Below, piece after piece: positions 981 through 60,355 of a stretch of 64,000 bases of DNA. The DNA comes from Candidatus Zhuqueibacterota bacterium (GTDB lineage Bacteria > SM23-31). Below the pieces are notes generated by a model. It was not told the DNA's origin. It saw only the letters and a program-made list of their open reading frames with translations, and did not search any database. The translations under genes and the position numbers were made by a program. The stretch is taken from the NCBI GenBank assembly GCA_042564455.1, contig JBHPLC010000004.1, forward strand, positions 2,270-66,269, read 5' to 3'. Position 1 is the first letter of the stretch, and every line of letters begins with the position of its first letter.

Positions 981-2192
981 CTATTTATTGATAATATCAT
1001 AAATCTCAACAGATAATTCCGTTTTGTTTAGGACAAACAGCCTGTTTCCCTGTATGGCGAAGTACTGCTGATAACGTCCAATAAATGTATCCAGATCAAT
1101 TGAACCAAGAAATACACCGTTCTTACCAAAGATATCGAATTTATGTAGAAAATCCTCTCCTCTTCTGGAAACATCCCGGGATGTAACAACCCACATCCTC
1201 CCCTTATCATCAACATCGATTCCTCTTGAAACAGTATTATACCGCAATGCTTCTGTTTCTACCTGCTCTCCTGCATATAATGTCAAGCGGATAACCACAT
1301 CTTTTTCTGTAGTTTCCTCAAAGGGTAAAGGCCTGGATATCCTTAATATCAAATTCCCCTCAGGATCATATTTTTCTATTCTATTCTGATTCCAGAATGT
1401 AATATAAATATTATCTTCTTCATCTCTTGCGATACTGCATTTGTAACTTAACCAGTAATTCATCAGCCAGTCGTTATACTGTCTTGCTTCCCCGAATTCT
1501 TTATACAGCTTACCATCTTCTTCATAAATTCTGCAAAGTTTCTCAAGTTCAGGCGGCCTGGTATTCATCGGCGGAGGGAACGGATAAGTGGACAGTTTTA
1601 CAAATCTGCCTGAACTCAGCCTCATTACCTCCTGATATGCACCCGCATATGACGAATTCTGCGGTATGGGCATTCCAGGATCATTATACGGCAGATTCTC
1701 TAAAGAAAACCTCCTGATTTCATTACCTGACTGGTCCATAATTATCATTTTTTCGAGTCTTAAATCTTCTATATACATATTCCCTTCATTATCCAGATCA
1801 AGATAAACCGGTTCCTGGAATTCGCCTGGGCCTTCTCCGGGTCGTCCAAATTGTCTGATAAATTCACCGTCTTTGTTATATTTCCGTATACATTTATCTC
1901 CCCGGCTGAGTACATAAAAATGTCCGGAATTATCTGCAGTCAGATCCTGCACCCTATAGAAATTATAATCCAGGTTCATCTCATCTTCCCCGCCGATCGT
2001 TTTAAATAAACTCAATCCTATCTTGGGATCATCACCCCATTGTGATTCCGTATTATTTACTTCATTAAATTTTATCACCTGTGATTCAGCTGCTATTTTC
2101 CTATTATTATCCTGCAAACCAAATCTAATAAAATATAGAATAACACTTAATAAACAGATAGATAATATAATCGTAATAAGCTTTAGACGCAT
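981..2192 (-). CDS. 6-bladed NHL-like beta-propeller protein (BF3164/DUF5128-like), paralogue 1, signal-anchored
   Basis: N-terminal hydrophobic anchor. Blade signature 'FGRPGEGPGEFQEPVYLDLDNEGNMYIED', 'NRIEKYDPEGN', C-terminal 'VEIYDIINK'. Shares these motifs with four other ORFs in the window. Confidence 0.7.
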   Translation of the reverse strand: MRLKLITIILSICLLSVILYFIRFGLQDNNRKIAAESQVIKFNEVNNTESQWGDDPKIGLSLFKTIGGEDEMNLDYNFYRVQDLTADNSGHFYVLSRGDKCIRKYNKDGEFIRQFGRPGEGPGEFQEPVYLDLDNEGNMYIEDLRLEKMIIMDQSGNEIRRFSLENLPYNDPGMPIPQNSSYAGAYQEVMRLSSGRFVKLSTYPFPPPMNTRPPELEKLCRIYEEDGKLYKEFGEARQYNDWLMNYWLSYKCSIARDEEDNIYITFWNQNRIEKYDPEGNLILRISRPLPFEETTEKDVVIRLTLYAGEQVETEALRYNTVSRGIDVDDKGRMWVVTSRDVSRRGEDFLHKFDIFGKNGVFLGSIDLDTFIGRYQQYFAIQGNRLFVLNKTELSVEIYDIINK

Positions 2193-2656: not shown

Positions 2657-2865
2657 AGGGAGGCCTGATACTAACAGGATGATTCACACCATCAATAACA
2701 ATAATACAATATTTTCGAACAATAAAACCATCAATGATCTAATTTTTTCATAAATATTTTTACATTTCCCCAAAAAAATCCTTGTTTTTTGAAACATTTT
2801 CATTATATTTGTGTATAATAGTTTGTGTTACAAACCAGTTTGTGGTAATAATCAGGAGTTTTCTT

Positions 2866-3474
2866 ATGAAAAATTTAGACTTGAAAAAAATTGAGAAAAA
2901 GGCCTTCCTTTCCGTCTCTCAGGACGGACTATTCGATATCTTTATCGGGTATATGTTCCTGGTATTGGGTGTTAGCGGTCTGACTGAAGGATGGTTCCCC
3001 TCACAGGATGCTAATTCTATCGTTTCGATGGTGTTTATGCTGTCAGGCCCTGTGTTCTTCATGCTTGCCAAAAAGTTCATAATAGCCCCACGGATAGGTG
3101 AGGTGAAGTTCGGGCAGAAACGGAAAATGGCAAGGAAAAAAGTGATAATAATCCTGGCTTTATTTATCATTATTACTTCCCTTTCTGGCAATCTGTTTAT
3201 AAACGACACTCTTCCCAACAGCCCGTTAATGAGTTCTCTTACAATGGGTGTTGTCATTTTTATTCCGCTGTCGATTGCGGCTTATTATTTCAATAACACA
3301 AGACTTTACTTCACGGCATTTTTAGCTGCACTTGTTGAAGTTATGTATAATTATGCCGGCGGATATATCGGGATCTGTATTCTCGGTTCTGTAATAATTC
3401 TTATCGGGCTGACTGTTTTTATAAATTTCCTGAAAAAGCACCCGGTTCAAAATTTAAACCAGGTAAACATATAA
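2866..3474 (+). CDS. Polytopic membrane protein, unknown function
   Basis: ATG at 2866 preceded by aggag (2854-2858); the 2782 TTG start in the track is unlikely. Several hydrophobic helices. 4-nt gap to the downstream regulator gene. Confidence 0.6.
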   Translation: MKNLDLKKIEKKAFLSVSQDGLFDIFIGYMFLVLGVSGLTEGWFPSQDANSIVSMVFMLSGPVFFMLAKKFIIAPRIGEVKFGQKRKMARKKVIIILALFIIITSLSGNLFINDTLPNSPLMSSLTMGVVIFIPLSIAAYYFNNTRLYFTAFLAALVEVMYNYAGGYIGICILGSVIILIGLTVFINFLKKHPVQNLNQVNI

Positions 3475-3478
3475 TATT

Positions 3479-3778
3479 ATGGATGAAAATAACTTTATAT
3501 CAAGTATAGATAAGATAATTCACGAACCTGCCAGATTTATTATCCTGGCGAACCTCTACGTTGTGGAAAGCATGGATTACCTTTTTCTCCTGAACGCTAC
3601 GGGATTGACAAAGGGAAACCTTACTTCCCACCTGACAAAGCTCAGTGAAGCGGAATATGTAAAGATCAACAAGGAATTCAAGGGCAATAAGCCGCATACA
3701 TGGCTGAATATCACCGAAAAAGGAAAAACCGCCCTGGATAATTACCGGAAGATCATGCAGGAAGCGGTAAAGGATTAG
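3479..3778 (+). CDS. Small winged-helix (MarR/ArsR-like) transcriptional regulator
   Basis: 99 aa. 'LLNATGLTKGNLTSHLTKLSEAEYVKINKEFKGNKPHTWLNITEKG' is an HTH plus wing pattern. Paired with the upstream membrane protein. Confidence 0.65.
   Translation: MDENNFISSIDKIIHEPARFIILANLYVVESMDYLFLLNATGLTKGNLTSHLTKLSEAEYVKINKEFKGNKPHTWLNITEKGKTALDNYRKIMQEAVKD
3647..3778 (+). repeat. Direct repeat copy A (3' end of the regulator gene), duplicated at 7938-8069
   Basis: By-eye alignment: first 67 nt identical, 10 mismatches in the remaining 65 nt (122/132). Confidence 0.9.
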
Positions 3779-3948: not shown

Positions 3949-3977
3949 TTGACATTGTTAAATTATATATTTATATT
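3949..3977 (+). promoter_or_regulatory. Sigma70-like promoter candidate (TTGACA-17-TATATT)
   Basis: ttgaca at 3949-3954, 17-nt spacer, tatatt at 3972-3977. Lies in AT-rich DNA, so a chance match is possible; about 330 nt upstream of the first cassette gene. Confidence 0.3.
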
Positions 3978-4305: not shown

Positions 4306-4704
4306 ATGGGAATAAAATTAAAGGAAGAAAATATTAAACTAACATTACGGATTTTGTTAGGTTTTATTTTCGCTTTTTCCGGAATAGCAAAACTGTTTTC
4401 GCCGGATTTGTTAATATCGAACCTCTGGCAAATCATTCAGCATGAAACACTCGTTACATTTGCGGTATATGTATTTAGCACTATTGAAATCATATTTGGT
4501 ATGATACTCATCATTTATGACTTGCGCCCGGTTAAGGTGACTGCAGTCTGTTCACTTCTTGTCTTTATAATTTATCTATCCTATAAAGTTATAACAAATG
4601 ATCCAAATTCATGTGGTTGTATGGGTGGTGTATTGCTAATGACTCATACTCAATCACTTATACAGGATCTTTTCTATTTAAGCGTGGGGATATATATCTT
4701 ATGA
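4306..4704 (+). CDS. MauE/DoxX-family redox-associated membrane protein
   Basis: Four hydrophobic helices. DoxX/MauE-like 'LRILLGFIFAFSGIAKL' and C-terminal 'NSCGCMGG' (the CGC motif typical of MauE-like proteins). RBS aaggatga upstream. Confidence 0.6.
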   Translation: MGIKLKEENIKLTLRILLGFIFAFSGIAKLFSPDLLISNLWQIIQHETLVTFAVYVFSTIEIIFGMILIIYDLRPVKVTAVCSLLVFIIYLSYKVITNDPNSCGCMGGVLLMTHTQSLIQDLFYLSVGIYIL

Positions 4705-5255
4705 AAAAAACAGCGGCATCTATTAAATATACTTTAATTATTGCTTTGTCATCACTGATTATTATTCTTTCAATCTTCAAGGCAATTAAAAGTATAGAAT
4801 TAAAAGTGAAAAGTGATAAAAATACTGTTAAGAGAATTGACTCTTTAAAACTCTACGGGCAGCAAATACCCAAGTTTGTTTTACAGAATAATTCCAATAA
4901 AACATCCATACCGGACTCCTGTAATTTTTTTCTACTGGCTGTAAACAATTTGACTCTGGTTGATTCTTTATCAATAAATAAATTGTTTGAGAAGTATACT
5001 GCGGGTAAATACAATGTCGATCTTCTTTTAATAACATCTGATAATAAAATATTAAAAAGTTCAGACCGGGGTATGTATTTATATGATCATACAAAGTTGG
5101 AGGATTTTCTTGATCTATCGGCTGATGATAACTTTACTCTTTTGACAAGTGAAAGTGGCCGCATCGAATATTTTTACAGGGCAATTCTTGGTTATGGTAA
5201 ACTTGAGGCATTGTTAGACAGATATAACAGAAAGGACGGTTTTGATGCGAGATAG
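4701..5255 (+). CDS. Signal-anchored protein, possible TlpA/MauD-like thioredoxin fold lacking the CxxC active site
   Basis: ATGA start/stop overlap with the previous gene (4701-4704). N-terminal TM helix. 'IPKFVLQN...SCNFFLLAVNNLTLVDSLSINKLFEKYTAGKYNVDLLLITSD' follows the TlpA-type strand/helix spacing, but no WCxxC is present. Confidence 0.35.
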   Translation: MKKTAASIKYTLIIALSSLIIILSIFKAIKSIELKVKSDKNTVKRIDSLKLYGQQIPKFVLQNNSNKTSIPDSCNFFLLAVNNLTLVDSLSINKLFEKYTAGKYNVDLLLITSDNKILKSSDRGMYLYDHTKLEDFLDLSADDNFTLLTSESGRIEYFYRAILGYGKLEALLDRYNRKDGFDAR

Positions 5256-6279
5256 ATTTCATATGTTTATCTATGCGCTGATTTTTATGGTTGTATTATT
5301 TGCCGGCTGTTCAGATCAGAGTGAAGAAAAATTTGTTTTCAACAAAGATAATATTTCAAAGTTACCGGTAGATGAAAAAAGACCTTTGAAATATGTTTCT
5401 TACGAGAATCAGGATAAGATCAGGCTTTTTAATCCCGGTATATTAAAATATAATCCTTACAACAATTTAATTTATATCTGTGATACGGGAAATCACAGGA
5501 TCGTAATCGTTGATACAGAATTGAACTATGTTGGTGAGTTTGGAAGATTTGGACAGGGACCTCAAGAGTTTAACGAACCTAACGGATTGCTTTTTACCGA
5601 AAACAGGATATTTGTTTCAGATATTCAAAACAGGCGAATGCAGGTTTTTGATTATGACTATAAAAATCAGTCGAGTTTTTATTGGAATAATATTTCATAT
5701 GTTGATTTTATGTGTATTAATTCTGAAGGCAAAATTATTCATAATAATCCTAAAGATCATGTGTTTGAGGTATTGGATCTAAATGGAAATAAGATTTCAG
5801 ATTTTGGAGAATTGGTTGCCACAAAAAACAATAGATTCAAGACACCGGAAAACGAACTTCGTTATGACATTGATCCTGATGATAATGTCTTCTGCACTTT
5901 TAAGAACCACCCAATGATCAGACAATATGACAGAAATTTTAATCTGATTTATGAAAGTGACGTGAGCTATATTCCCGGAGTGATCACAAGAACAGAATTT
6001 AACAAGAAACAAACACTGGAAAATCCGGGAAGATATTATACGAAATGGCTTAATGAAAGCCTAACCGTTGATGATAATTATATCTACATTCGTTTCAAAG
6101 AAAATGGGTATCCCATATATGTGTTTGAAAAAAATACAAGTCTGCCTGTTGAGAAAATTATACTAAAACCAAAAATAGATGAATTAATCGATTATGATTT
6201 CAAATATATAACCTTCTCTCCGAATTATCTTTACACCATCGATACAATAAATTTTGAGCTATACATGTACAAAAAATAG
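5245..6279 (+). CDS. 6-bladed NHL-like beta-propeller lipoprotein, paralogue 2
   Basis: ATG at 5245 with aggacgg RBS. Lipobox 'LFAGC'. 'FGRFGQGPQEFNEPNGLLFTENRIFVSD', 'MIRQYDRNFN', C-terminal 'FELYMYKK'. Confidence 0.7.
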   Translation: MRDRFHMFIYALIFMVVLFAGCSDQSEEKFVFNKDNISKLPVDEKRPLKYVSYENQDKIRLFNPGILKYNPYNNLIYICDTGNHRIVIVDTELNYVGEFGRFGQGPQEFNEPNGLLFTENRIFVSDIQNRRMQVFDYDYKNQSSFYWNNISYVDFMCINSEGKIIHNNPKDHVFEVLDLNGNKISDFGELVATKNNRFKTPENELRYDIDPDDNVFCTFKNHPMIRQYDRNFNLIYESDVSYIPGVITRTEFNKKQTLENPGRYYTKWLNESLTVDDNYIYIRFKENGYPIYVFEKNTSLPVEKIILKPKIDELIDYDFKYITFSPNYLYTIDTINFELYMYKK

Positions 6280-6308
6280 AACTTTAAAAACAAGGAAAGG
6301 ATATTTGT

Positions 6309-6593
6309 ATGTTAAGAAAAACAGCATTGATAATGATGACAGCTGCAATGCTTTTCTCAGTTGTAAGCATTGCATTTGCCGCAGGCTGTCCAATTACTGA
6401 GTCTTGTCCTCCTGATCAGGGAGGGGGAGCAATCAATTGTTCTTGTCGTGGAGCAGGTAACTGTACCTCACATAATTGTTCTCCGGCTGCTGGAGATGGA
6501 CCTGGAGAAGGAGAGATTTGTCACGTTGTCTGTGATTGCACCGGTGAAGATGACGACAGTGAAGCCTGGTGCGACGGAGAACAGCAAAACTAA
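6309..6593 (+). CDS. Secreted cysteine-rich peptide 1 (94-aa precursor, 10 Cys in about 70-aa mature part)
   Basis: Signal peptide MLRKTALIMMTAAMLFSVVSIAFA. Mature region C-x5-C-x10-C-x-C-x5-C-x4-C-x13-C-x3-C-x-C-x10-C with an acidic tail 'GEDDDSEAWCDGEQQN'. RBS aaggaaagga. Confidence 0.7.
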   Translation: MLRKTALIMMTAAMLFSVVSIAFAAGCPITESCPPDQGGGAINCSCRGAGNCTSHNCSPAAGDGPGEGEICHVVCDCTGEDDDSEAWCDGEQQN

Positions 6594-6660
6594 TCTTTTG
6601 TGTATTATTGTACTAATAAATAACACGTTTCCATTAACCAAATTAAGAAAGGATGTTTGT

Positions 6661-6945
6661 ATGTTAAGAAAAACTGCATTGATTATGATGACAGCTGCAA
6701 TGCTCTCTATAATATCCGGCATTGCAATAGCACATTCCTGCATCATTGAAAAACCCTGCCCACCTGAACAGGGTGGTGGTGTGATACAATGCGGCTGTCC
6801 GGCGGGGGGTAGTTGTAGAGCATTTAATTGTTCTCCGGCTGCTGGAGATGGACCTGGAGAAGGAGAGATCTGTCACGTTATATGTGATTGTACAGGTGAA
6901 GATAACGACAGTGAAGCCTGGTGCGACGGAGAACCGGAAAACTAA
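6661..6945 (+). CDS. Secreted cysteine-rich peptide 2 (tandem paralogue, 94 aa)
   Basis: ATG at 6661. Same length and an identical 10-Cys spacing. The C-terminal half is nearly identical to peptide 1. Confidence 0.7.
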   Translation: MLRKTALIMMTAAMLSIISGIAIAHSCIIEKPCPPEQGGGVIQCGCPAGGSCRAFNCSPAAGDGPGEGEICHVICDCTGEDNDSEAWCDGEPEN

Positions 6946-6984
6946 TCTTTTTCCCTGTTGAATCAAAAATATCTATCATGTTGG

Positions 6985-7017
6985 ACAAGACCGAAATATA
7001 AATTATTCCGGTCTTGT
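6985..7017 (+). terminator. Weak hairpin after the peptide genes
   Basis: acaagaccg (6985-6993) pairs with cggtcttgt (7009-7017); 15-nt loop; followed by ttatatata. Confidence 0.3.
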
Positions 7018-7079
7018 TATATATAAGCTCAATATCCCGAATTACTGTCTATGACAATCATTTTTCGAAAGATAAAGTC

Positions 7080-7925
7080 ATGAAAAGGATTAACATTATA
7101 GTCTTCACTTTTGTAATTGTGGCTTTTATATTAATGATACGATGTTCCGGAAATAAAAAGGAATTTAAAAACGCATATCCTGTTTTTCCATCAAATGGTT
7201 CATTGGTTCTTGCAGGCGGTGGCCGCATTAATACTGAAATATATAAAGAGTTCGTAAAATTAGCTGGAGGAAATGAAGCTAAAATTATTATAATCCCAAG
7301 CGCCGATCCCATACAATTTCAGAAGAACAGTCTTTACGCTGAAAATGAATTCAAAAAGATTGGAGCATTAGATTTATATATACTTCATACCACTGATAAA
7401 AGTATGGCAAATTCGAATGAGTTTGTCGAAGTACTAATAGGTGCTTCCGGTGTTTGGTTTACCGGCGGCTGGGAGTGGCGGATAACAAGAACATATCTAC
7501 ATACAAAAGTCCACAAAGAACTTACGGAACTGTTGAAAAGAGGAGGTGTGATCGGCGGGAATTCTGCCGGAGCCTCAGTTTTAGGTGAATTCTTAATTTC
7601 CGACAGGCTTGAAAGTAACATCAGTGAATCTGAATGGGATTTCAATGGATTTGGATTTTTAAAAAATGCTGTAATTGATCAGCATATGAACAGAGATGAT
7701 AAATATGAAACATTTGCCGGTTATATGCGAGAATTGCCTCATTTATTTGGTATAGGTATAGATGAGAATACTGCGTTGATTATTAGTGACAATAGTATGA
7801 GAATAATTGGAGAAGATAAAGCTACGATATATAACTATTTCGCTGATTCTCTCAAAATAAAAGAGGATATTAATTATTATTTTCTCTATCCGGGAGATTT
7901 CCTGTTTTTTGACAATGTTAAATAG
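7080..7925 (+). CDS. Peptidase S51 / cyanophycinase-like (type 1 glutamine-amidotransferase-like fold), signal-anchored
   Basis: ATG at 7080 gives an N-terminal hydrophobic helix. 'LVLAGGGRI', 'IIIIPSA', 'VWFTGGW' and the nucleophile elbow 'GGNSAGASV'. Confidence 0.65.
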   Translation: MKRINIIVFTFVIVAFILMIRCSGNKKEFKNAYPVFPSNGSLVLAGGGRINTEIYKEFVKLAGGNEAKIIIIPSADPIQFQKNSLYAENEFKKIGALDLYILHTTDKSMANSNEFVEVLIGASGVWFTGGWEWRITRTYLHTKVHKELTELLKRGGVIGGNSAGASVLGEFLISDRLESNISESEWDFNGFGFLKNAVIDQHMNRDDKYETFAGYMRELPHLFGIGIDENTALIISDNSMRIIGEDKATIYNYFADSLKIKEDINYYFLYPGDFLFFDNVK

Positions 7926-8177: not shown

Positions 8178-8843
8178 TCAGTCTTCTTCTTTATCCTTCC
8201 GATGTTTGATAACGGTTCCTGAAACGATGTACATTACATCTTCGCAAATGTTTGTGGAGAGATCTGCGACTCTTTCGAGGTTGCGTGCAATTCTTATCAG
8301 GCTGACACACCTTTCTATTGAAGATCTGTCTGTTTTCATATATTCGGTTAGTTTTAACAGGATCGAATCTCTGAGATCATCAACAATTGAATCCCTGTCG
8401 CAGACGGTCTTTGATAACTCTGTATCCTCCTCAATGAAAGATGTTATACTGTCGTGTAACATTCTTAACGCTTCGCTCTTGATCTTCAGTATATCATCAT
8501 TAGCTATCGAGATCGGAGGTTTATTGATCAGGAACAGGCCGCTCTCGCTGATATTGACCGCCTGGTCACCAAGCCTTTCAAGATCATTATTCATCTTATA
8601 GATCATCAGAACTGTTCTCAAATCCTTTGCTAATGGCTGAAACTGAGCAATAAGCGCTGTACATTTCTCTTCGACTTCAAGCTCATATTCATTTGCCTTT
8701 GGCTCATCTTCATTTATTACCTCATGCAAAATATCGGGCTGATTATTAAGCAATCCCTTAATGCTTTTCGAGATCATATCTTCCACGAAAGTGGCAAACA
8801 TTACAAGATCTTTTTTTAGATTGTTTATTTCTGTATTCAGCAT
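8178..8843 (-). CDS. phoU: Phosphate signalling complex protein PhoU
   Basis: 221 aa with a two-repeat helical PhoU-like sequence. Immediately downstream of pstB. Confidence 0.85.
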   Translation of the reverse strand: MLNTEINNLKKDLVMFATFVEDMISKSIKGLLNNQPDILHEVINEDEPKANEYELEVEEKCTALIAQFQPLAKDLRTVLMIYKMNNDLERLGDQAVNISESGLFLINKPPISIANDDILKIKSEALRMLHDSITSFIEEDTELSKTVCDRDSIVDDLRDSILLKLTEYMKTDRSSIERCVSLIRIARNLERVADLSTNICEDVMYIVSGTVIKHRKDKEED

Positions 8844-8852
8844 ATATTACCC

Positions 8853-9611
8853 CTATCCAAATTTTCCTGTTAAATATTCCTCAGTCCTTTTATCCTGAGG
8901 TGTAGTAAAAAGCTTGTTAGTCTCACCGAATTCCACCATGTCCCCCAGATACAGAAATGCCGTATAATCGGATATCCTCGCCGCCTGGGCAATATTATGT
9001 GTGACCATTATTATCGTTTCGGTCTTTTTAAGTTCTACGATCAATTCTTCGATCTTCTGCGTGGCTTTCGGATCCAATGCGGATGTAGGTTCATCAAGCA
9101 GTATTATTGCCGGTTTCATTGCAAGGGAACGGGCAATACAGAGCCTCTGCTGCTGCCCACCGGATAAAAATGTACCTTTTTTGTGCAGCGAGTCTTTCAC
9201 CTCATCCCATAATGCAGAATCACGCAGTGCTTTTTCGACTATCCGGTCTTTTTCTGATTTGGACAGTTTTAAACCGTTCAGATTATATCCGGCAAGAACA
9301 TTATTGTAAATACTCATAGTCGGGAAAGGATTCGGTCTCTGAAATACCATACCTATCTGTCTTCTAATGAGCACAGGTGATATTTCATAAACATCCTTAT
9401 TGCTCAAAAGCATCCTGCCTTCAACCCTTGTATCAGGAGTGATCTCGTGCATCCTGTTGATACACCTGATAAGAGTTGTCTTTCCGCAGCCGGATGGACC
9501 CATAATAGTCGTAACCGCATTTTCGGTCATTTCAAGATTGATCTCGTTGAGTACCTTCTTTTCACCGTACCATGCTGAAAAGTTCTCAATTTTTAATATT
9601 GTATTTTCCAC
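8853..9611 (-). CDS. pstB: Phosphate ABC transporter ATP-binding protein PstB
   Basis: Walker A GPSGCGKTT, signature LSGGQQQRL, Walker B ILLDEPTSALD. PstB-type N-terminus. Confidence 0.9.
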   Translation of the reverse strand: MENTILKIENFSAWYGEKKVLNEINLEMTENAVTTIMGPSGCGKTTLIRCINRMHEITPDTRVEGRMLLSNKDVYEISPVLIRRQIGMVFQRPNPFPTMSIYNNVLAGYNLNGLKLSKSEKDRIVEKALRDSALWDEVKDSLHKKGTFLSGGQQQRLCIARSLAMKPAIILLDEPTSALDPKATQKIEELIVELKKTETIIMVTHNIAQAARISDYTAFLYLGDMVEFGETNKLFTTPQDKRTEEYLTGKFG

Positions 9612-10438
9612 TTACCCGCCAGATATTTAGCAATTAAATTCAGTGATAAAACCATAACTATTAATACAAGAGACGCAGCCCATGCCAGCTGATGCCATTC
9701 CGGATAAGGACTGATCGAATATATATATATAGAATGCGGAAGAGCCCTTACAGGTTTCAATATATTCAGATTCATGAAATCACTGCCGAATGCAGTGAAC
9801 AAAAGAGGAGCCGTTTCACCGGCGATCCGTGAAATCCCGAGCAGTGATCCGGTCACTATCCCGCTTAATCCGGCCGGGATCGTAACCTTAATTATTGTTT
9901 TATAATATGGAACACCAAGTGATAATGATGCCTCTTTTAATGAATCCGGAGTCAGCAGCAGTGTTTCTTCAGTTGACCTTATTATCATTGGGATCATCAT
10001 TATAGCCAGCGCTATCCCTCCTGAAACTGCCGAGAATCCAAATGGTAATACGATCCAGACATAAGCAATTATTCCAATAACCACTGAAGGTACACCCTGA
10101 ATTATTTCGACTCCCAGCCTTACCCAGTCTGCCAGTTTGTTTTTCTTAAATTCATATAAATATACTCCGGCGGCAACACCTAAGGGAAAGGCCAGAACAC
10201 CTGCAATAGACAGCAGTAAAAATGTCCCGACTATCGCATTAGCTATCCCGCCTCCCGCCTCCCCCGGCGGTTTGGGCATTTCAACCAGGAATTCCCAGTT
10301 GATCGCAGATATTCCCTGTTTGAATATGTAATAAAAAATCAAAAACAGCGGGATTAATGCTGATATTGAAAACAGAAATATAATTACTGAAAACAACCTG
10401 TTCTTAAAAAACCTGTATTTTAAACCTTTATCATTCAT
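9593..10438 (-). CDS. pstA: Phosphate ABC transporter permease PstA
   Basis: Six-TM BPD-type permease with the EAA-like loop 'EASLSLGVPYYKTIIKVTIP'. Position in the pst operon. Confidence 0.85.
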   Translation of the reverse strand: MNDKGLKYRFFKNRLFSVIIFLFSISALIPLFLIFYYIFKQGISAINWEFLVEMPKPPGEAGGGIANAIVGTFLLLSIAGVLAFPLGVAAGVYLYEFKKNKLADWVRLGVEIIQGVPSVVIGIIAYVWIVLPFGFSAVSGGIALAIMMIPMIIRSTEETLLLTPDSLKEASLSLGVPYYKTIIKVTIPAGLSGIVTGSLLGISRIAGETAPLLFTAFGSDFMNLNILKPVRALPHSIYIYSISPYPEWHQLAWAASLVLIVMVLSLNLIAKYLAGKWKIQY

Positions 10439-10458
10439 GTTTTACCGTAATTATATCA

Positions 10459-11388
10459 CTAACTATTAAACCTGAACCTTTTCACGATCTGTTTTCCTAT
10501 AAAATTGATGACTGCAGTCATCAGGAACAGAATAAGCCCGACATAAATTAGAGCCGACAAATGCAGGTCATCGGATGCTTCTGCAAATTCATTGGCTATC
10601 ACACTTGCCATGGTGTTCGCCGGGCTGAAAATACTGTCCGGTATATTATTTGAATTACCGATCAGCATTGTCACGGCCATCGTTTCACCAAGAGCACGCC
10701 CAAGAGATAAGAATATCCCCGCCATGATCCCAGACCAGACATACGGAACCGTTACCCTTCTGATCACTTCATATCTTGTAGCTCCGAGTGCATAGGCTCC
10801 TTCCTTGACCTCCGAAGGCACCATGCTTATTACTTCCCTGCTTATCATCGCCGAATAAGGTATTATCATAATAGCAAGAACTATAGATGCCGAGAATATA
10901 CCCACCCCGTACGGCAGCACACCAAGCTTCATCTCAAGGTTTCTGATCATCGGAACAAGATAAAACAGCCCCCAGAAACCGAAAATAATTGACGGTATCC
11001 CGGCAAGAAGCTCAATAACACTCTTCATAAATCCGGCAAATTTACCGGATTTTTTATATTCCCCCAAAAAAACAGCGATTGAAAGAGAAAAAGGCAGAGA
11101 TATTATCAATGCCAGCAGTGAAGTTACAAGTGTGCCTACCACAAAAGGCAGAGCACCATATTGTCCTGTAACAGGATCCCATACCCTGTCTATAAAGAAA
11201 CCAAGGCCAAATTCCCTGATGGATTCTTTCGAAGCTATCAGAAGAGTTACAAAAAGTGCGGCCAGTAATAAAATTATGATTACTGCAGTAACTTTTAAAA
11301 CAAACCTGAAGATCCGGTCAGGGATCTCCGATCTGTCAGGTTTTCTTTTTTCAGGATATTTCATATCTTTTCTAAGAATAAATTTCAT
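10459..11388 (-). CDS. pstC: Phosphate ABC transporter permease PstC
   Basis: BPD-type permease with 'EGAYALGATRYEVIRRVTVP'. Sits between pstS and pstA. Confidence 0.85.
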   Translation of the reverse strand: MKFILRKDMKYPEKRKPDRSEIPDRIFRFVLKVTAVIIILLLAALFVTLLIASKESIREFGLGFFIDRVWDPVTGQYGALPFVVGTLVTSLLALIISLPFSLSIAVFLGEYKKSGKFAGFMKSVIELLAGIPSIIFGFWGLFYLVPMIRNLEMKLGVLPYGVGIFSASIVLAIMIIPYSAMISREVISMVPSEVKEGAYALGATRYEVIRRVTVPYVWSGIMAGIFLSLGRALGETMAVTMLIGNSNNIPDSIFSPANTMASVIANEFAEASDDLHLSALIYVGLILFLMTAVINFIGKQIVKRFRFNS

Positions 11389-11392
11389 AGAA

Positions 11393-12451
11393 TCACTTTT
11401 TCAGCAGCTTCTCTCCACCGTAAGTTACCGAACTGAGAATATCTTCAACAGATCCGACAACCTTTTCAGAGATCGGTGCATAGTCCAGTGTCGGAGCATA
11501 TTTCTGCCCCTCATGTGTCATCCAGTGCAGCAGGTTAAGCAGGCTCAAAGCATCTTCACGTGATCTGTTATCATATTTCTGCTCTTTGTACAAGATTATC
11601 CAGGTAAAACCGCTTATTGGGTACCCATTATCCGACATTGTATTCGTCAAAGATACTCTCGTATCAGCGGGGATATCAGCATTTGCAGAAGCACTGATCG
11701 ATTCAATTGAGGGTTTTATAAAATTCCCTTTACTGTTCTTAATAAGTGCTCCCGTCATGTTGTTGTGTATAGTATAAGCAAGCTCAACATAACCGATACT
11801 TCCGGGGATCTGTTTTACCAATCCGGCAACACCTTCATTCCCTTTAGCGCCAAGCCCCTCAGGCCAGTTAACAGATTTTCCGCGTCCGACTTCTTTATCC
11901 CATTCGGGACTGATCTTGCCCAGATAATCCGTAAAAATATTTGTTGTCCCGCTACCGTCTGATCTGTGCACCACGATGATATTCTGATCTGGCAGGGAAA
12001 TTTCCGGATTCAGATTTTTAATCTCTGCAGCATTCCACTTTTTGATCGTTCCCAAAAAGATACCGGAAAGAGCTTCAGGGCTTAACCTTATCTCCGGATT
12101 ACCCGGCAAATTGTAAGTCACAACAACCGCACCCAGGCAAATCGGGATATGAACAATTTCCGCAGGTGCATTTTTGATATCCTCATCTTTCATAAAAGCA
12201 TCTGTTGCACCAAAGTCAACTGTCTTGTTGATCAGCTGTCTGATACCGCCGCCTGATCCGATCGACTGATAATTAACTCTTACATTATAGGATTTGTTAT
12301 ACACATTAAACATCTTGGAATAAAGCGGATACGGAAATGTTGCTCCGGCACCCAGTATCTCATTATCCTGAGAAAAGATCGGAGAAATTATCCCGGATAT
12401 TAAAACGATTAAAGCTGAAATAATTATTATCTTCATTGAATATATTGTCAT
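11393..12451 (-). CDS. pstS: Phosphate-binding protein PstS
   Basis: Signal peptide. 'GAGATFPYPLY', 'YQSIGSGGGI' and 'HRSDGSGTT' motifs of PstS. Confidence 0.85.
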   Translation of the reverse strand: MTIYSMKIIIISALIVLISGIISPIFSQDNEILGAGATFPYPLYSKMFNVYNKSYNVRVNYQSIGSGGGIRQLINKTVDFGATDAFMKDEDIKNAPAEIVHIPICLGAVVVTYNLPGNPEIRLSPEALSGIFLGTIKKWNAAEIKNLNPEISLPDQNIIVVHRSDGSGTTNIFTDYLGKISPEWDKEVGRGKSVNWPEGLGAKGNEGVAGLVKQIPGSIGYVELAYTIHNNMTGALIKNSKGNFIKPSIESISASANADIPADTRVSLTNTMSDNGYPISGFTWIILYKEQKYDNRSREDALSLLNLLHWMTHEGQKYAPTLDYAPISEKVVGSVEDILSSVTYGGEKLLKK

Positions 12452-12473
12452 TCTGTTTACCTCCTGAATATAT

Positions 12474-13583
12474 TTAGAAATGTACTTCGATAGTGAATTT
12501 TGTCAATTTATTAAGCTCGACATCACCGTTCTGATCTTCGGCAAAATCAAAATCGAGGAGGGCTTTGTGTTTCCCTGCGAATTTATAAACCACACCTAAT
12601 ATCCTTCTGTTAACCAGGTTATCATTTACACTCGTATTTGGATCGAATGAATCATATCTTCCGATCAGGCTGAATTTGGATTCCGGTATATTAACCTCAC
12701 CAAAAAGAGAAAAGCCCGACTGATCATAAGGATTCCCGAGACCATCAAGCATTTTGCCTTTGGAATCACCTTTACCATTATAATATGTTCCTGTCGCAAC
12801 GAATCTTTCATCTTCATAGGAAAGGAAGAAAGTATTCACCTTCCAGTCAGGTTCTGCGGCAATATTTCCCTTTCCAAAGATACCGAAATAAGACAGCTGA
12901 AGCCCCGGCAGATGATCAGGCATTGGCCTTAAGGTAAACCTTCCTTCAAACACCTTATTGATGTTTTTCTCATGCGCGTGGTATCCACCTCCGTTATAAA
13001 GACCTAATGCTACACTCCCGTATCTTCCGGGATATTTACTGCTGATATTCTTCTGGTAATCTTCATCTACTTCTCCACCAAGCAGTGTCACAAAAGTCAC
13101 TCCGAAATCAGCTGAGTTAAACAAATGACTTCGTTCGAGATACATTGTCCCCTGCATCCTGTAATTATCAATATGCTCTTCGAAATCAAGCCAGGGGCGG
13201 TGAACCAGCCCGAATTCAACATACGACTTTGTGAAATAGTCATTTGAAGGGAGGTTGAAATTCATATACATGTATTTCAACCTGACTTTTACATCACCTG
13301 TACTGTCATGTGTAATATCAGGTGTGATCCTTGCTGAAAGCGATGAACTGAACTTAGGTTTGAAGTTTAAGTACCCCCTGTGAACGTAGAATTTGTTAAC
13401 ATCTGCTCCGCCATCCTTACCGGCAAGGTAGGACATGTACCAGACACCCGATATCGGCACTTCCATTCCTTCTGCTGCAACAGCAAAATTTGAATTTATC
13501 CCCACCAGAAAAACAACTGCAAATGTCAGAATTCCTGTGAGAATCCTGATATTCCCTGTTTTTTTAAAATTTGCTGGAAACAT
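12474..13583 (-). CDS. Outer-membrane beta-barrel porin, probably phosphate-selective (OprO/P-like)
   Basis: Signal peptide, alternating beta-strand pattern, C-terminal 'FTIEVHF'. First gene of the pst transcription unit. Confidence 0.55.
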   Translation of the reverse strand: MFPANFKKTGNIRILTGILTFAVVFLVGINSNFAVAAEGMEVPISGVWYMSYLAGKDGGADVNKFYVHRGYLNFKPKFSSSLSARITPDITHDSTGDVKVRLKYMYMNFNLPSNDYFTKSYVEFGLVHRPWLDFEEHIDNYRMQGTMYLERSHLFNSADFGVTFVTLLGGEVDEDYQKNISSKYPGRYGSVALGLYNGGGYHAHEKNINKVFEGRFTLRPMPDHLPGLQLSYFGIFGKGNIAAEPDWKVNTFFLSYEDERFVATGTYYNGKGDSKGKMLDGLGNPYDQSGFSLFGEVNIPESKFSLIGRYDSFDPNTSVNDNLVNRRILGVVYKFAGKHKALLDFDFAEDQNGDVELNKLTKFTIEVHF

Positions 13584-13766: not shown

Positions 13767-15494
13767 CTACTTGATGGGGAAGGATATGATAAACTCCGTA
13801 CCTTCTCCAGGCCGGCTCTTTACATCGATTGATCCTTTATGCAGAATTACTATATGTTTTACAATTGAAAGACCCAGACCTGTCCCTCCCATATTCCTGG
13901 AACGTGCCTTATTGACTACATAAAATCTTTCAAAAATCCTGGAAAGATGTTCTTTATCTATACCGATACCGGTATCTTTTACCGATATTTTAACTCCTCC
14001 ATCAGAGTTAACAGCCGAGACCTCAATATCTCCGCTTTCGGTATAATTAATTGCATTTTCCACCAGATTGATAAACAGCTGTTCAAGCTTGAACGGATCG
14101 GCAAACAGTTTTCTCAGGCCTTCCTCAATATTCACTGACAGTTTAAGTCCCTTGTTTTTTATCTTTTGTTCAAAAAGCAGATCCGTTTTCTGTATTACCT
14201 GTCCGATATCGGTTTCTTCAAAGGTCTGCTCGATATTAGTATCTTCTACCTCCGAAAGTGTAAGGAGTTCTTTTACAATGCGAATAAGTCTTTCAGTGTT
14301 CCTTGAAATGATCTCTATAAATTTCTTCTGTTCCCCTTTAGAGTCTTCCTGAAGAGTTTCAAGATATCCTTTTATAGCCGTTAAAGGTGTATGAAGTTCG
14401 TGAGAAACATTAACCACAAGATCTTTTTTCAGCATATCAAATCTTTTAAGTTCCGATATGTCATAAAATATTACCAGAATTTCCTCTTTTGATTTAATAA
14501 ACGTGACACTGCAAATATAATTCTTGTCTTCTAATTCAAGTTCTTCCGTTATATCCCGTTTTTCATTAATTGCTTTACTAATAAACTCATTAAAACCGGT
14601 TTCACGGATCACTTCCCAGTAAGATTTATCAACAATATCCTGCTGGTCTACGATTGAATTGAAGCTGTTGTTGTTTAACAGTATCTTACCATCCTTATTT
14701 AACAGTAAAAGCCCTTCCTGCATTGAACCGATCAGTGAATCCAGTTCTTCATTCTTCTCTCTGAATTTCTCAAAAAGTATTTCCAGCTGTGCTGCCATCG
14801 TATTAAAACTTCCGGATAACTGTCCGATTTCATCATTGCGTTCAATATTCATTCTTGCCTTGAATTCACCACGGGCTACTTTCTGAAATGACTGTGCAAG
14901 CAGTTTTACAGGTTTTGAAATTCCCCTTGAAATAAAAACAGAAATAAGGAGCATCGTAAATAATACAAGTAATACCGATTCAATAATATCAGTCTTTATC
15001 GTATTCAATAAAGCAGTAATATCATTGATATAAAGGCTTGATCTTAAAACATAGGAGTCACCGGTGTCCACAATAAATCTGACGGCAACATACATCATGT
15101 CATGTTCCAGCGTCTCACTGTACCTGATAGACCAACCGCTACCATTTTCTATAGCATCCGATATTTCCGGCCTGTAACGGTGATTTTCCATAGTATCAGG
15201 ATCTTTCTCAGAATCTCCGAGAACAATACCTTTTTCATCGATCAGTGTCAGCCGGGTATTAATTACAGGGCTCTGTTCATCTAAAAACTCATCAATTCTG
15301 TCTGTCATATTATTATTTATCAAGTCGGACAGTGAAGGCTCAAGGGCATAACTTAATCTTTGAATATCATTTCTCTGCTGATCGATATAGAAGTCGTTCA
15401 ATTTGTTAAAGACAAAGAATATTATCAGTACAGCAATGACTACAGTTAGTAAAATATAGCCGGTAAAGATCTTTGTAAAAATTGAGTTTTTCAT
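13767..15494 (-). CDS. phoR: Sensor histidine kinase, PhoR-like (TM-HAMP-PAS-HisKA-HATPase)
   Basis: H-box 'SHELHTPLTAIKGY', N-box 'NLVENAINY', G-box 'GTGLGLSIVK'. 4-nt overlap with the upstream response regulator gene. Confidence 0.7.
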   Translation of the reverse strand: MKNSIFTKIFTGYILLTVVIAVLIIFFVFNKLNDFYIDQQRNDIQRLSYALEPSLSDLINNNMTDRIDEFLDEQSPVINTRLTLIDEKGIVLGDSEKDPDTMENHRYRPEISDAIENGSGWSIRYSETLEHDMMYVAVRFIVDTGDSYVLRSSLYINDITALLNTIKTDIIESVLLVLFTMLLISVFISRGISKPVKLLAQSFQKVARGEFKARMNIERNDEIGQLSGSFNTMAAQLEILFEKFREKNEELDSLIGSMQEGLLLLNKDGKILLNNNSFNSIVDQQDIVDKSYWEVIRETGFNEFISKAINEKRDITEELELEDKNYICSVTFIKSKEEILVIFYDISELKRFDMLKKDLVVNVSHELHTPLTAIKGYLETLQEDSKGEQKKFIEIISRNTERLIRIVKELLTLSEVEDTNIEQTFEETDIGQVIQKTDLLFEQKIKNKGLKLSVNIEEGLRKLFADPFKLEQLFINLVENAINYTESGDIEVSAVNSDGGVKISVKDTGIGIDKEHLSRIFERFYVVNKARSRNMGGTGLGLSIVKHIVILHKGSIDVKSRPGEGTEFIISFPIK

Positions 15495-58121: not shown

Positions 58122-59255
58122 CTATTTCTCCACGATATTATACACGTAAAAACGCATGCTGTAACGTTTCTCAAGAATATAGATCTTGTTGCCGATGACT
58201 CTTATTCCGTCGCAGAACTGCTTGAGCTGATAAGCATTCAAAAAAACACCGTTTTCATCGTAAAGATACAGTATATAAGCATCGGTCTCAAGTTTATCGT
58301 TTTTGCCCGAACTCGCATCTGCTCTTTCCTCTGTGCTTAATAGTCTTTTTTTTGTCAGAAACCACATTCTGCCTTTTGGATCAACACTAAAGCCAGCAGG
58401 CATTTTTTCACTTTTGATTGTGACTTCTTCGATTCCCTCATCCGGATCTACAGGCCTGTTAGTCCTGAAAATCTGTGTGCCGTCAGGGCGGAATTTCTCA
58501 AGCCGGTTCTGCCATAGCATTACGGTATATACATTGTCTTTAATGTCGACGTCGTAAAACATTCTGTTTAATCCGGTTTTCCATTCGAGTTTTGGTTTAT
58601 ATATCGTGGCCTCACCGAAACGTCTTAATATATTACCTTCCCGGTCATGAATATGAATCAGCGGCATCCAAGTCTCTTTGCCTGGTTCAGGTCTAAAGCG
58701 GTTGATGTTTTCAGTGGCTATATTTTTCATCACAATTTCGCCTGTCTGCAGCGCCCTGACATAGTCTACATATGGGGCATATATCTTAATAGTGCCTGTA
58801 TATTTGCCTTCACTGGTGAGGATCTCAAGGCGGTCGTTAGAAAAATTCGCCACGTAGATGTTATCGCTTCCACCAATATCGATAGATAAGGGCCTTAAAA
58901 ATTCTCCCGGACCCTGGCCATTACGGCCGATTGTGTGAATATACTTGCCGTTCGGATCAAATTTCTGTATACGGAAATTGCCCGCATCAAGGACATACAG
59001 ATTCCCTTCGGAATCTCCGGCAATATCGGCAGGATTGTAGAACATATAGTTTTCATCTTCCGACTCGAGTTTTCCCAAAAATCCTTCGAATATGAGTTCA
59101 ATCCGCGGCTCATCCCCCCAGAGTGCAGCGTGGTTGTTGATATGCCTGACTCCATCTATAACCTCAACAGTGTATGTTTTATCCTGTGCAACGGACATTC
59201 CCTGAATAATGCAGGTAAACAAAAGCGCTATTACAAAAAAACCGGAGGTTTTCAT
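58122..59255 (-). CDS. 6-bladed NHL-like beta-propeller protein, paralogue 3
   Basis: ATG at 59255, 2 nt after the stop of paralogue 4. Signal peptide. 'IGRNGQGPGEFLRPLSIDIGGSDNIYVAN', 'NRLEKFRPDG', C-terminal 'YVYNIVEK'. Confidence 0.7.
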   Translation of the reverse strand: MKTSGFFVIALLFTCIIQGMSVAQDKTYTVEVIDGVRHINNHAALWGDEPRIELIFEGFLGKLESEDENYMFYNPADIAGDSEGNLYVLDAGNFRIQKFDPNGKYIHTIGRNGQGPGEFLRPLSIDIGGSDNIYVANFSNDRLEILTSEGKYTGTIKIYAPYVDYVRALQTGEIVMKNIATENINRFRPEPGKETWMPLIHIHDREGNILRRFGEATIYKPKLEWKTGLNRMFYDVDIKDNVYTVMLWQNRLEKFRPDGTQIFRTNRPVDPDEGIEEVTIKSEKMPAGFSVDPKGRMWFLTKKRLLSTEERADASSGKNDKLETDAYILYLYDENGVFLNAYQLKQFCDGIRVIGNKIYILEKRYSMRFYVYNIVEK

Positions 59256-59257
59256 TA

Positions 59258-60355
59258 CTATTTCTCCACGATCTTGTATTGATAAACGCACATATTTCCA
59301 CGAGTATCGATCAGATACATATGATTTTTGAAAATCCGCATGAAATCAAATCTCTGTGGTGCAGCCACAGTCTGTAATAAATATCCATCCTCACTAAATA
59401 TTTCAAAATATACATAATCCTGAAATTCCATATCTGCTTCTTTTTGTTTTTTGTAAGTAATTACCCACAGTCTATTATCATTATCAATATCAATTCCCAG
59501 CGATACTACAGGCGGGATTGCTACAATAACTGTCTCACCTTCATCATTTTCAAATTGTCCAATTTTCTTGGGGCTCACATCGAAATTTACTTTTCTGTCG
59601 GTTCTGAATATAAGGTCTCCGTTTTTTGTATATTTTTCAATTCTATTTTGTCTCATAAATGATGCATAAATTTCATTGTTCTCTGAAACACAAATACCGA
59701 TACGATTGCCATCGAAATTAGCGCTAAAATTTCCAAAATCATCACTTTTACCGAAAGTTTTCAACTCTTTCCCGCTGAAGTCGTATATAGCAATCAAAGG
59801 AGGAGTGCTATTTTTCAAACCGGCTGCAGTCCATACAACAAAACTGTTGTCACTCAAAATCCGAAATCCTGTCATTCCCCTCTGAAAGGACATATATTCT
59901 TCAAACTTCCCTTCATTTGAGAATATTTGAATTCTACGTCCGGAAGCAGAAGCAACATATATATTTCCCTGATCATCTATATCCCCGCTTATATAAGTTG
60001 GAAATTCACCCGGCCCCTGGCCTTTTCTGCCAAAACTAAGCAAGAATTCCCCTCTGGAGTTGAATTTCTGTACCCGGGAATTGCCGGAATCAAATATATA
60101 TATGTTCCTTTCTTCGTCTTCCAAAACATCACGTGGCTCGTAAAATTGATAGTTCTTACCCTTTTCATCCAGTTCCCCGATAACCTGAACTAATTTCAAT
60201 TCAATTTTCTGCTCATCCCCCCACATCGGTTTTTCATTATGTATCAGCCTGATACCATCTTTTACTTCAACAGTGTACGTTTTCCCCTCCTGTCCGAAGC
60301 AAATACCTGAGAACAGAAAAAGCACCAGAATGACGATGCAAATCCCATATTTCAT
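59258..60355 (-). CDS. 6-bladed NHL-like beta-propeller protein, paralogue 4
   Basis: Signal peptide. 'FGRKGQGPGEFPTYISGDIDDQGNIYVAS', 'NRIEKYTKNG', C-terminal 'YQYKIVEK'. N-terminus 'KTYTVEVKDGIRLIHNE' matches paralogue 3. Confidence 0.7.
   Translation of the reverse strand: MKYGICIVILVLFLFSGICFGQEGKTYTVEVKDGIRLIHNEKPMWGDEQKIELKLVQVIGELDEKGKNYQFYEPRDVLEDEERNIYIFDSGNSRVQKFNSRGEFLLSFGRKGQGPGEFPTYISGDIDDQGNIYVASASGRRIQIFSNEGKFEEYMSFQRGMTGFRILSDNSFVVWTAAGLKNSTPPLIAIYDFSGKELKTFGKSDDFGNFSANFDGNRIGICVSENNEIYASFMRQNRIEKYTKNGDLIFRTDRKVNFDVSPKKIGQFENDEGETVIVAIPPVVSLGIDIDNDNRLWVITYKKQKEADMEFQDYVYFEIFSEDGYLLQTVAAPQRFDFMRIFKNHMYLIDTRGNMCVYQYKIVEK

Follow-up and report, generated by a model that had tools for sequence, protein, structure and literature searches.

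A six-gene locus with overlapping and closely spaced reading frames

We analyzed a 64,000-nucleotide (64-kb) stretch of DNA from Candidatus Zhuqueibacterota bacterium (an uncultured member of candidate division KSB1; assembly GCA_042564455.1, contig JBHPLC010000004.1, positions 2,270 to 66,269 of the forward strand), hereafter the window, and focused on a cassette at 4306-7925 that encodes a MauE-family membrane protein, its coupled partner, a beta-propeller and small cysteine-rich secreted peptides. As a preliminary description of the sequence had claimed, the region holds six co-directional open reading frames (ORFs), which we refer to as G1 to G6:

4306..4704, + strand: G1, a 132-aa MauE-family membrane protein
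4701..5255, + strand: G2 (also called X), 184 aa, with a predicted N-terminal membrane anchor and ~140-aa periplasmic domain
5245..6279, + strand: G3, 344 aa, a six-bladed beta-propeller of the NHL-repeat type that carries a lipoprotein signal
6309..6593, + strand: G4, a 94-aa secreted-peptide precursor with 10 Cys
6661..6945, + strand: G5, a 94-aa paralogue of G4 with 10 Cys
7080..7925, + strand: G6, a 281-aa signal-anchored S51 serine peptidase whose membership of the cassette is doubtful

Direct reading of the sequence also bore out the junctions that had been described. The TGA stop codon of G1 overlaps the ATG of G2 in the tetranucleotide ATGA (4701-4704), and the ATG of G3 at 5245 lies 11 nt inside G2, the stop codon of which is at 5253-5255. 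A ribosome-binding site (AAAGGACGG) lies upstream of the G3 start, and strong ribosome-binding sites precede both G4 (AAGGAAAGG) and G5. The most plausible start of G6 is the ATG at 7080, 135 bp past G5, and this is the largest intergenic gap of the cassette. Two non-coding features accompany the genes:

6984..7018, + strand: a stable hairpin between G5 and G6, with a 10-bp stem and a 4-bp inner stem, without a U-tract
3949..3977, + strand: a candidate sigma-70-like promoter, TTGACA-17-TATATT (11/12), the best match in the gap 5' of G1

The hairpin was present in both the centroid and the minimum-free-energy structures; a standard terminator scan did not call it, and it may serve as an attenuator or mRNA stabilizer. 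The gap upstream of G1 is 527 bp long and AT-rich. Promoter-like sites are not enriched in this gap (27 found versus 21.4 expected from shuffled sequence), and the evidence for the candidate promoter is weak. An Rfam scan of the region returned nothing credible.

A second locus pairs the same three genes with an unrelated peptide

The closest relative of G3 (P0006, 26-27% identity) was found purely by propeller similarity and resides on a 3.4-kb Logan metagenome contig, L002. This contig carries four genes in the following order:

MauE, 132 aa, at the start of the operon: 34% identical to G1, with the motif NDSSDCGCFG (Pfam, 1.1e-23)
G2 homologue (X), 172 aa, joined by an 8-nt ATGAATAA overlap: BLASTP 3e-7, 21-25% identity, with the same anchor-plus-domain layout
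Propeller, 345 aa, 10 nt past the stop of the G2 homologue: 26-27% identical to G3
Secreted peptide, 83 aa, 10 nt further on: unrelated to G4 and G5

The 10-nt gaps carry ribosome-binding sites, and the propeller passes the DUF5128 threshold at 35.2 bits. All four L002 proteins are singletons in a 15-billion-protein collection. The L002 peptide has a Sec signal and a ~63-aa mature part with eight Cys and a WW pair, and contains neither His nor a CxC motif; its alignment to G4/G5 scored below the shuffle mean (z about -0.3). Both loci thus end in Sec-signal peptides that contain Trp and an even number of Cys (10, 10, and 8). No S51 gene was found on L002, where the ~350 bp after the peptide gene contain no long same-strand ORF.

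The initial claim of a cassette that joins MauE-based folding and a propeller with small, secreted peptides rich in Cys was therefore upheld by a locus with the same order and similarly tight junctions, and the link of MauE, G2, and the propeller to such peptides is probably real. Because L002 keeps this order while neither the S51 gene nor the lipidation of the propeller is conserved, we define the conserved unit as MauE, G2, an NHL propeller, and a secreted peptide that varies in sequence and has an even Cys count.

Over the last 400 bp of L002 (within 2700-3380), the GC content rises from ~30% to 56%, and a Metalloenzyme-superfamily-like fragment lies on the opposite strand; the end of the contig may be chimeric or mark a sharp island boundary. 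A 2.2-kb contig from a second KSB1 metagenome-assembled genome (L001; GCA_042563365.1) was rejected as independent support because it is 99.5% identical to the window and represents a same-strain replicate. Its minus-strand MauE was likewise rejected as a different gene order and attributed to an assembly chimera; positions 1975-2257 of L001 repeat window 4431-4713 in inverted orientation and are fused to the S51 gene at its 3' end. Genome-contig scans with G3 alone and with an alignment of G3 and P0006 returned nothing, as did viral-contig scans with the G2 and propeller alignments.

G1 has the sequence hallmarks of MauE

G1 matched the Pfam MauE profile (PF07291) with an E value of 1.3e-15 (58.2 bits, with the cut-off at 27, over positions 4-124 of the 128-position profile) and also matched Pfam DoxX (2.9e-5). 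With both profiles matched and the motif NSCGCMGG present, the original assignment of G1 as a DoxX/MauE-like protein stands. The CXC motif of G1 is C103-G-C105 and is located between the third and fourth hydrophobic segments.

The MauE proteins of Caldithrix and Desulfatibacillum restore motility and PhoA activity to an E. coli dsbB deletion strain, and either Cys of the CXC motif is essential for this complementation (bioRxiv 10.64898/2026.03.05.709764). In the family, the CXC motif lies in a loop before the last transmembrane (TM) helix and is usually followed by Phe-Gly, and a conserved Lys in TM1 and Glu in TM2 line a predicted quinone site (10.64898/2026.03.05.709764). The DsbB-like generation of disulfides by MauE is probably quinone-linked. 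The authors of the preprint proposed that MauE works via a thioredoxin-family partner, e.g., DsbA or MauD; fusions to thioredoxin-family domains make up 8.2% of MauE proteins, and MauA is present in only ~10% of the species that have MauE (10.64898/2026.03.05.709764).

In G1, the CGC is followed by Met-Gly instead of the usual Phe-Gly; the L002 MauE has CGCFG. K29, E61, and the CGC-x-G of G1 are invariant in comparison with the L002 MauE. In a five-sequence alignment with MauE fusion proteins, the Lys and the CGC are conserved, and the Glu is kept in four sequences and shifted in the fifth. Judged by sequence, G1 has every feature of a DsbB-like MauE except the Phe after the CXC motif.

G2 is an orphan membrane-anchored protein

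G2 had been described as resembling a TlpA/MauD-type thioredoxin fold without a WCxxC motif. This assignment failed all sequence and profile tests that we applied (Pfam, NCBIfam, PDB, and hhalign). G2 showed no Pfam or NCBIfam match at E<=1, no PDB match with either the single sequence or a two-sequence profile, and no homologue in a search of 5.8 billion proteins; hhalign of G2 against the thioredoxin (Trx) domains of MauE fusion proteins gave a probability of 0.4%. A single-sequence AlphaFold2 model had a mean predicted local distance difference test (pLDDT) score of 44.6, too low for use. G2 contains one Cys (C74) and neither a CxxC nor a CxxS motif, and C74 is not conserved in the L002 homologue. 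Even the CxxC-bearing domains of MauE fusions score only E ~0.05 against the Thioredoxin/Redoxin profiles, however, so the negative profile results for G2 are not decisive either way.

We observed that the concatenated G1 and G2 sequences, and likewise the L002 pair, align in order with MauE-TM-Trx fusions, and that the anchor of G2 falls on the fifth TM helix. This positional alignment is the sole line of evidence for G2 as a putative degenerate thioredoxin-like partner. A metagenome scan with a MauE alignment returned 12 loci, all encoding MauE-Trx-type fusion proteins or fragments, and none of the 12 had a G2 homologue, propeller, or peptide nearby. In the fusions at L013 (CSHC) and L014 (CDHC), MauE is extended by a fifth TM helix and then a domain with CxxC; the soil-metagenome fusions at L005 (5920-7691) and L008 (981-2890) share this layout, but their C-terminal domain is without CxxC ('ALFDVTDARAAG'). 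Downstream of each of the L005 and L008 fusions, and overlapping it by 4 nt, is a gene for a secreted protein that ends in a WCPHC thioredoxin domain. These two loci appear to be natural examples of a MauE with a redox-dead domain and a separate active thioredoxin.

G3 is an NHL-type propeller lipoprotein

G3 matched the Pfam NHL profile (27 bits against a cut-off of 20) and fell below the Pfam thresholds for DUF5128 (18.5 versus 22.9) and TolB_like (21.1 versus 29.2). An AlphaFold2 model built from seven sequences had a pLDDT of 69.6 and a predicted template modeling score (pTM) of 0.70. The top Foldseek matches to this model were the NHL domains of Brat, TRIM71, and TRIM2 (E values of 1e-15 to 1e-13; TM-score up to 0.80), and the exported B. 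fragilis protein BF0058 (PDB 4raa) was matched as well. The N terminus carries a lipobox (LFAGC, followed by SDQSEEK). The NHL profile, the fold match, and the lipobox all support the earlier description of G3 as a six-bladed propeller lipoprotein. The closest relatives of G3 are only 25-27% identical.

Four other NHL/DUF5128-like propeller paralogues are encoded on the minus strand of the window (981-2192, 58122-59291, 59258-60355, and 60387-61640), three of them in tandem. Most of the four contain the GxGPGEF motif, and three have an N-terminal extension that G3 lacks. No MauE, G2 homologue, or Cys-rich peptide is adjacent to any of the four. Similarly, P0007, P0008, and P0009, which are more remote relatives of the propeller, have no MauE in their gene neighborhoods, and none was found at the one DUF5128-rich locus that we examined. 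The preliminary description had also stated that propellers of this family often neighbor small secreted-peptide genes in Bacteroidota. A literature search on DUF5128, NVEALA, and BF0058 found nothing relevant to these families, and this link between propellers and small (NVEALA) peptides is a putative one.

G4 and G5 are twin acidic peptides with ten invariant cysteines

As had been described, G4 and G5 are twin 94-aa precursors with 10 invariant Cys and one invariant Trp, all in the mature part. Each has an AXA-type Sec signal peptide (...AFA/AG in G4) and a 70-aa mature part with two CxC motifs, two His, and many Asp/Glu residues. The mature peptides have net charges of -12 (G4) and -11 (G5), and the two proteins share 70-71% amino acid identity. 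They are the only ORFs in the window that combine a signal peptide with a Cys-rich sequence.

Comparison of G4 with G5 gave an overall ratio of nonsynonymous to synonymous substitution rates (dN/dS) of 0.25. In the N-terminal half of the mature part, synonymous sites are saturated (proportion of synonymous differences, pS, 0.85; nonsynonymous, pN, 0.34) and five of five Cys are kept. The low dN/dS, the saturated synonymous sites, and the retention of all Cys indicate that G4 and G5 are under purifying selection and are real coding genes rather than chance ORFs. In the C-terminal half of the mature part, the two genes share 88-98% nucleotide identity, and the G4 copy in the sister assembly (L001, 382-666) differs at nine positions, at least four of which shift toward the G5 sequence. 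Together, these patterns in the sequences point to ongoing gene conversion between the tandem genes.

We found no homologue of G4 or G5 beyond the peptide and its paralogue in a word-indexed set of 5.8 billion proteins. A HMMER scan of 1.84 billion cluster representatives with a mature-peptide profile recovered only the G4/G5 family and one chance match. The chance match, P0004, scored E 4e-4 over five repeats ('WLSCSPxxGxSTGEHD') of a 1390-aa repeat protein, and we rejected it as a relative because the score was judged to be summed over the repeats. There was no Pfam match at E<=1, including to MauA, the gamma subunit of quinohemoprotein amine dehydrogenase (QH-AmDH), and metallothionein, and no match to any bacteriocin family in Pfam, NCBIfam, or the 1.84-billion-protein scan. 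A PDB sequence search with the peptide profile yielded noise only. G4 and G5 thus represent a new orphan family of acidic peptides with five predicted disulfides, for which toxin, inhibitor, or binding functions are possible.

The residue content of the peptides bears on whether they might be periplasmic metal-binding proteins, akin to metallothionein, that buffer copper, zinc, or another thiophilic metal, with the propeller as a partner and the upstream winged-helix regulator in control. The two CxC motifs, two His, and many acidic residues would suit such a role, and the HTH_34 regulator (3479-3778) has a weak ArsR/SmtB-type match. However, coupling to a disulfide-generating MauE argues against free thiolates, the L002 peptide has neither His nor CxC, the metallothionein profile was not matched, and 527 bp separate the regulator from G1. 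On balance, we consider metal buffering quite improbable.

A different possibility is a toxin or bacteriocin locus, in which G4 and G5 would be antagonistic peptides stabilized by disulfides and folded by MauE, and G2 and/or the propeller would be an immunity protein or receptor decoy. We regard this as unlikely, though several observations fit: the peptides evolve fast and are unrelated, in contrast to the conserved accessory genes, the peptide gene is duplicated in tandem with apparently ongoing gene conversion, a hairpin follows the structural genes, and the sublancin operon with its own BdbB offers a precedent. Weighing against it, the cassette has no outer-membrane exporter, C39/ABC transporter, or leader-cleavage motif, and the peptides lack bacteriocin-family matches. 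Most bacteriocins are also cationic, whereas mature G4 and G5 are strongly acidic.

The preliminary description had drawn a parallel to methylamine dehydrogenase (MADH) and QH-AmDH. As a homology, this would make the propeller the large subunit of a quinoprotein and G4/G5 its cross-linked small subunits with a Cys/Trp cofactor, matured by MauE and a MauD-like G2. The gene content does parallel mauB-E-D-A, and a Trp lies near a Cys in both types of peptide (AWC here and WWFQC in L002). Nevertheless, the peptides lack profile matches to MauA and to the QH-AmDH gamma subunit, the propeller is of the NHL six-bladed type, G2 lacks CxxC, and none of the six cassette products matches a heme-protein, radical-SAM, or flavoprotein family. 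Moreover, a catalytic small subunit should be conserved, whereas the peptides of the two loci share no detectable similarity, and MauE is now seen as a generalist that coexists with MauA in a tenth or so of the species that have it. We therefore did not retain the homology and consider a quinoprotein extremely improbable.

G6 is an exported S51 peptidase outside the conserved unit

G6 matched Peptidase_S51 over the full profile (6.4e-21; 75.4 bits against 23.9; profile positions 1-206 of 206) and scored 124 bits against the cyanophycinase equivalog TIGR02069, just under its cut-off of 126.6. Its best PDB relatives are cyanophycinases, namely 7uqv (1.8e-25) and 3en0. Cleavage of cyanophycin depends on Ser132 and His174 and on a pocket formed by Gln101, Asp172, Gln173, Arg178, Arg180, and Arg183 (PMC3235067, citing Law et al. 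2009). We read the corresponding G6 residues from an alignment to 3en0 (chain offset +20). G6 keeps the catalytic Ser, the Asp-Gln-His, and the GIDE motifs, and carries the substitutions Q101E, R178D, R180K, and R183T, which affect four of the six residues described as critical for cleaving cyanophycin. These substitutions suggest that G6, an exported S51 serine peptidase, is probably not a canonical cyanophycinase. The NCBI annotation of G6 as a cyanophycinase is probably over-specific.

Of the earlier proposals for G6, the S51/cyanophycinase-type assignment was confirmed by the Pfam match, and a role as the processing peptidase of the cassette found no support. Its inclusion in the cassette did not hold up either, as the gene is absent from L002 and the hairpin separates it from G5. 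G6 is probably an accessory, lineage-specific add-on or a mere neighbor.

We also considered that G6 might be the functional core, with the peptides as its substrates or disulfide-knotted inhibitors. G6 is on the same strand 135 bp downstream of G5, is exported, and retains its Ser and His motifs with an altered substrate pocket, all of which would be compatible with this idea. But no S51 gene follows the peptide gene of L002, and both the hairpin and the largest intergenic gap of the cassette lie between G5 and G6. In addition, S51 enzymes are exopeptidases or release dipeptides and are not known to be endoproteolytic maturases. An S51-centered system is accordingly very improbable.

Relation to known systems

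By analogy, the cassette is closest in logic to mauE/mauD-mauA and to the sublancin operon, and it is a member of neither. Maturation of the disulfide-rich small subunit of methylamine dehydrogenase requires MauE (10.64898/2026.03.05.709764). Similar to the mau cluster, the cassette encodes MauE and a periplasmic partner anchored in the membrane, together with a beta-propeller and a small secreted protein dense in Cys. Unlike in the mau cluster, the peptides lack homology to MauA and are not conserved between loci, the propeller is not a homologue of MauB, and G2 has no CxxC; none of the six products is a heme-protein match, so there is no MauG-like gene in the cassette.

The sublancin operon of SPbeta (sunA-sunT-bdbA-sunS-bdbB) encodes its own BdbB oxidase and a dispensable BdbA (PMC6391423). 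Sublancin-type (glycocin) loci and the cassette are alike in that a peptide operon includes its own membrane disulfide-forming enzyme and a second, possibly dispensable partner. They differ in that the cassette uses MauE rather than a DsbB homologue, exports its peptides by Sec signals instead of by a leader with an ABC transporter, has no glycosyltransferase, and contains a propeller.

The order MauE (four TM helices), TM helix, periplasmic domain is common to G1 plus G2 and the MauE-Trx fusions (the NCBIfam BT_3928 family; L013, L014, and L005), and the L005 domain also lacks CxxC. In contrast to the fusions, G1 and G2 are split into overlapping genes, and the G2 domain has no detectable similarity to the Trx domains. 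Against the BT_3928 model, G1 matched the N-terminal part only (35 bits versus a cut-off of 250).

Human NHLRC2, plant SOQ1, and bacterial P0010 represent a recurring architecture that is comparable in layout, with a thioredoxin-like module, tethered to a membrane or compartment, beside an NHL six-bladed propeller in an oxidizing compartment. However, these are single polypeptides with a recognizable thioredoxin and no Cys-rich cargo, whereas here the genes are separate and G2 is unrecognizable. G3 shares its fold and its export, or lipoprotein nature, with the DUF5128/BF0058 propellers of Bacteroidota; G3 itself is below the DUF5128 cut-off, unlike its L002 homologue. Finally, G6 belongs to the same fold family as the cyanophycinases CphB and CphE, retains the Ser and His motifs, and is exported as CphE is, but differs from them in falling under the TIGR02069 cut-off and in its substituted critical residues.

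A candidate module for oxidative folding and handling of secreted peptides

We propose, with moderate confidence, that the operon encodes a module dedicated to the oxidative folding of disulfide-rich secreted peptides and to their handling. The G4 and G5 precursors would be exported through Sec, as their signal peptides suggest, and G1 would supply oxidizing equivalents, converting 10 Cys to five disulfides in each peptide and, in L002, eight Cys to four. We infer this role for MauE because the activity has been demonstrated for the family and the linkage is conserved. G2, tethered to the membrane, translationally coupled to MauE, and in the position of the thioredoxin partner, would be an adaptor or holdase, and not an oxidoreductase, because it has no redox cysteines.

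The NHL propeller would bind the peptide as a folding scaffold, a carrier, or a stable partner, and NHL folds commonly serve as binding platforms. The translational coupling, the shared gene order, the lack of a conserved Cys in G2, and this binding-platform nature all suggest that G2 and the propeller may be non-redox handling or binding partners. A conserved trio of MauE, G2, and propeller with a non-conserved peptide fits a generic maturation and handling module for fast-evolving cargo. The folded peptides themselves could be antagonistic toxins, inhibitors, ligands or subunits of the propeller, or metal binders.

Several points weigh against the folding-module proposal. The independent loci known so far number two, and both come from uncultured organisms. 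In G1, Met replaces the Phe that is conserved after CXC in most MauE proteins, and every homology test on G2 was negative. The cassette has no CxxC partner and thus no defined path by which MauE would pass disulfides to the peptide; the MauE of the cited study was tested in a dsbB-deleted E. coli strain, and a thioredoxin-family partner was proposed there. The propeller is a lipoprotein in the window and has an ordinary signal peptide in L002.

A bolder version, which we offer tentatively and hold to be doubtful, is that MauE, G2, and the NHL propeller constitute an unrecognized machine for disulfide-knotted secreted peptides, in which hypervariable cargo would be oxidized on a propeller/adaptor scaffold with no CxxC thioredoxin intermediary. 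If true, FCB-group bacteria would harbor a reservoir of 'knottin-like' peptides that has yet to be explored. Only recently was MauE proposed to be, after one other, the most common disulfide-forming protein of bacteria, and almost nothing is known of the substrates and partners that it has in nature. The cassette presents a natural MauE case, with coupled partners (one without redox Cys), adjoining disulfide-dense presumptive substrates, and recurrence across deep divergence. How MauE hands over disulfides to its substrates becomes directly testable with four small genes.

Genomic surroundings

Upstream of the cassette (2782-3778, + strand), a 230-aa multi-pass membrane protein with no family match is followed 5 nt later by the 99-aa HTH_34 winged-helix regulator (1.5e-22). 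The AT-rich gap sets this pair off from the cassette, and no link between them was established. Downstream, a convergent phosphate-uptake operon (phoU-pstB-pstA-pstC-pstS; 8178-13583, - strand) is followed by a 369-aa signal-peptide protein without a Pfam match, possibly a porin, and then by a histidine kinase (13767-15494). Toward the end of the window (62199-63905, - strand), a 568-aa protein carries a terminal FlgD-Ig domain and scored 25.8 bits against Por_Secre_tail, below the cut-off of 27; this near-match hints that the KSB1 organism may use type IX secretion.

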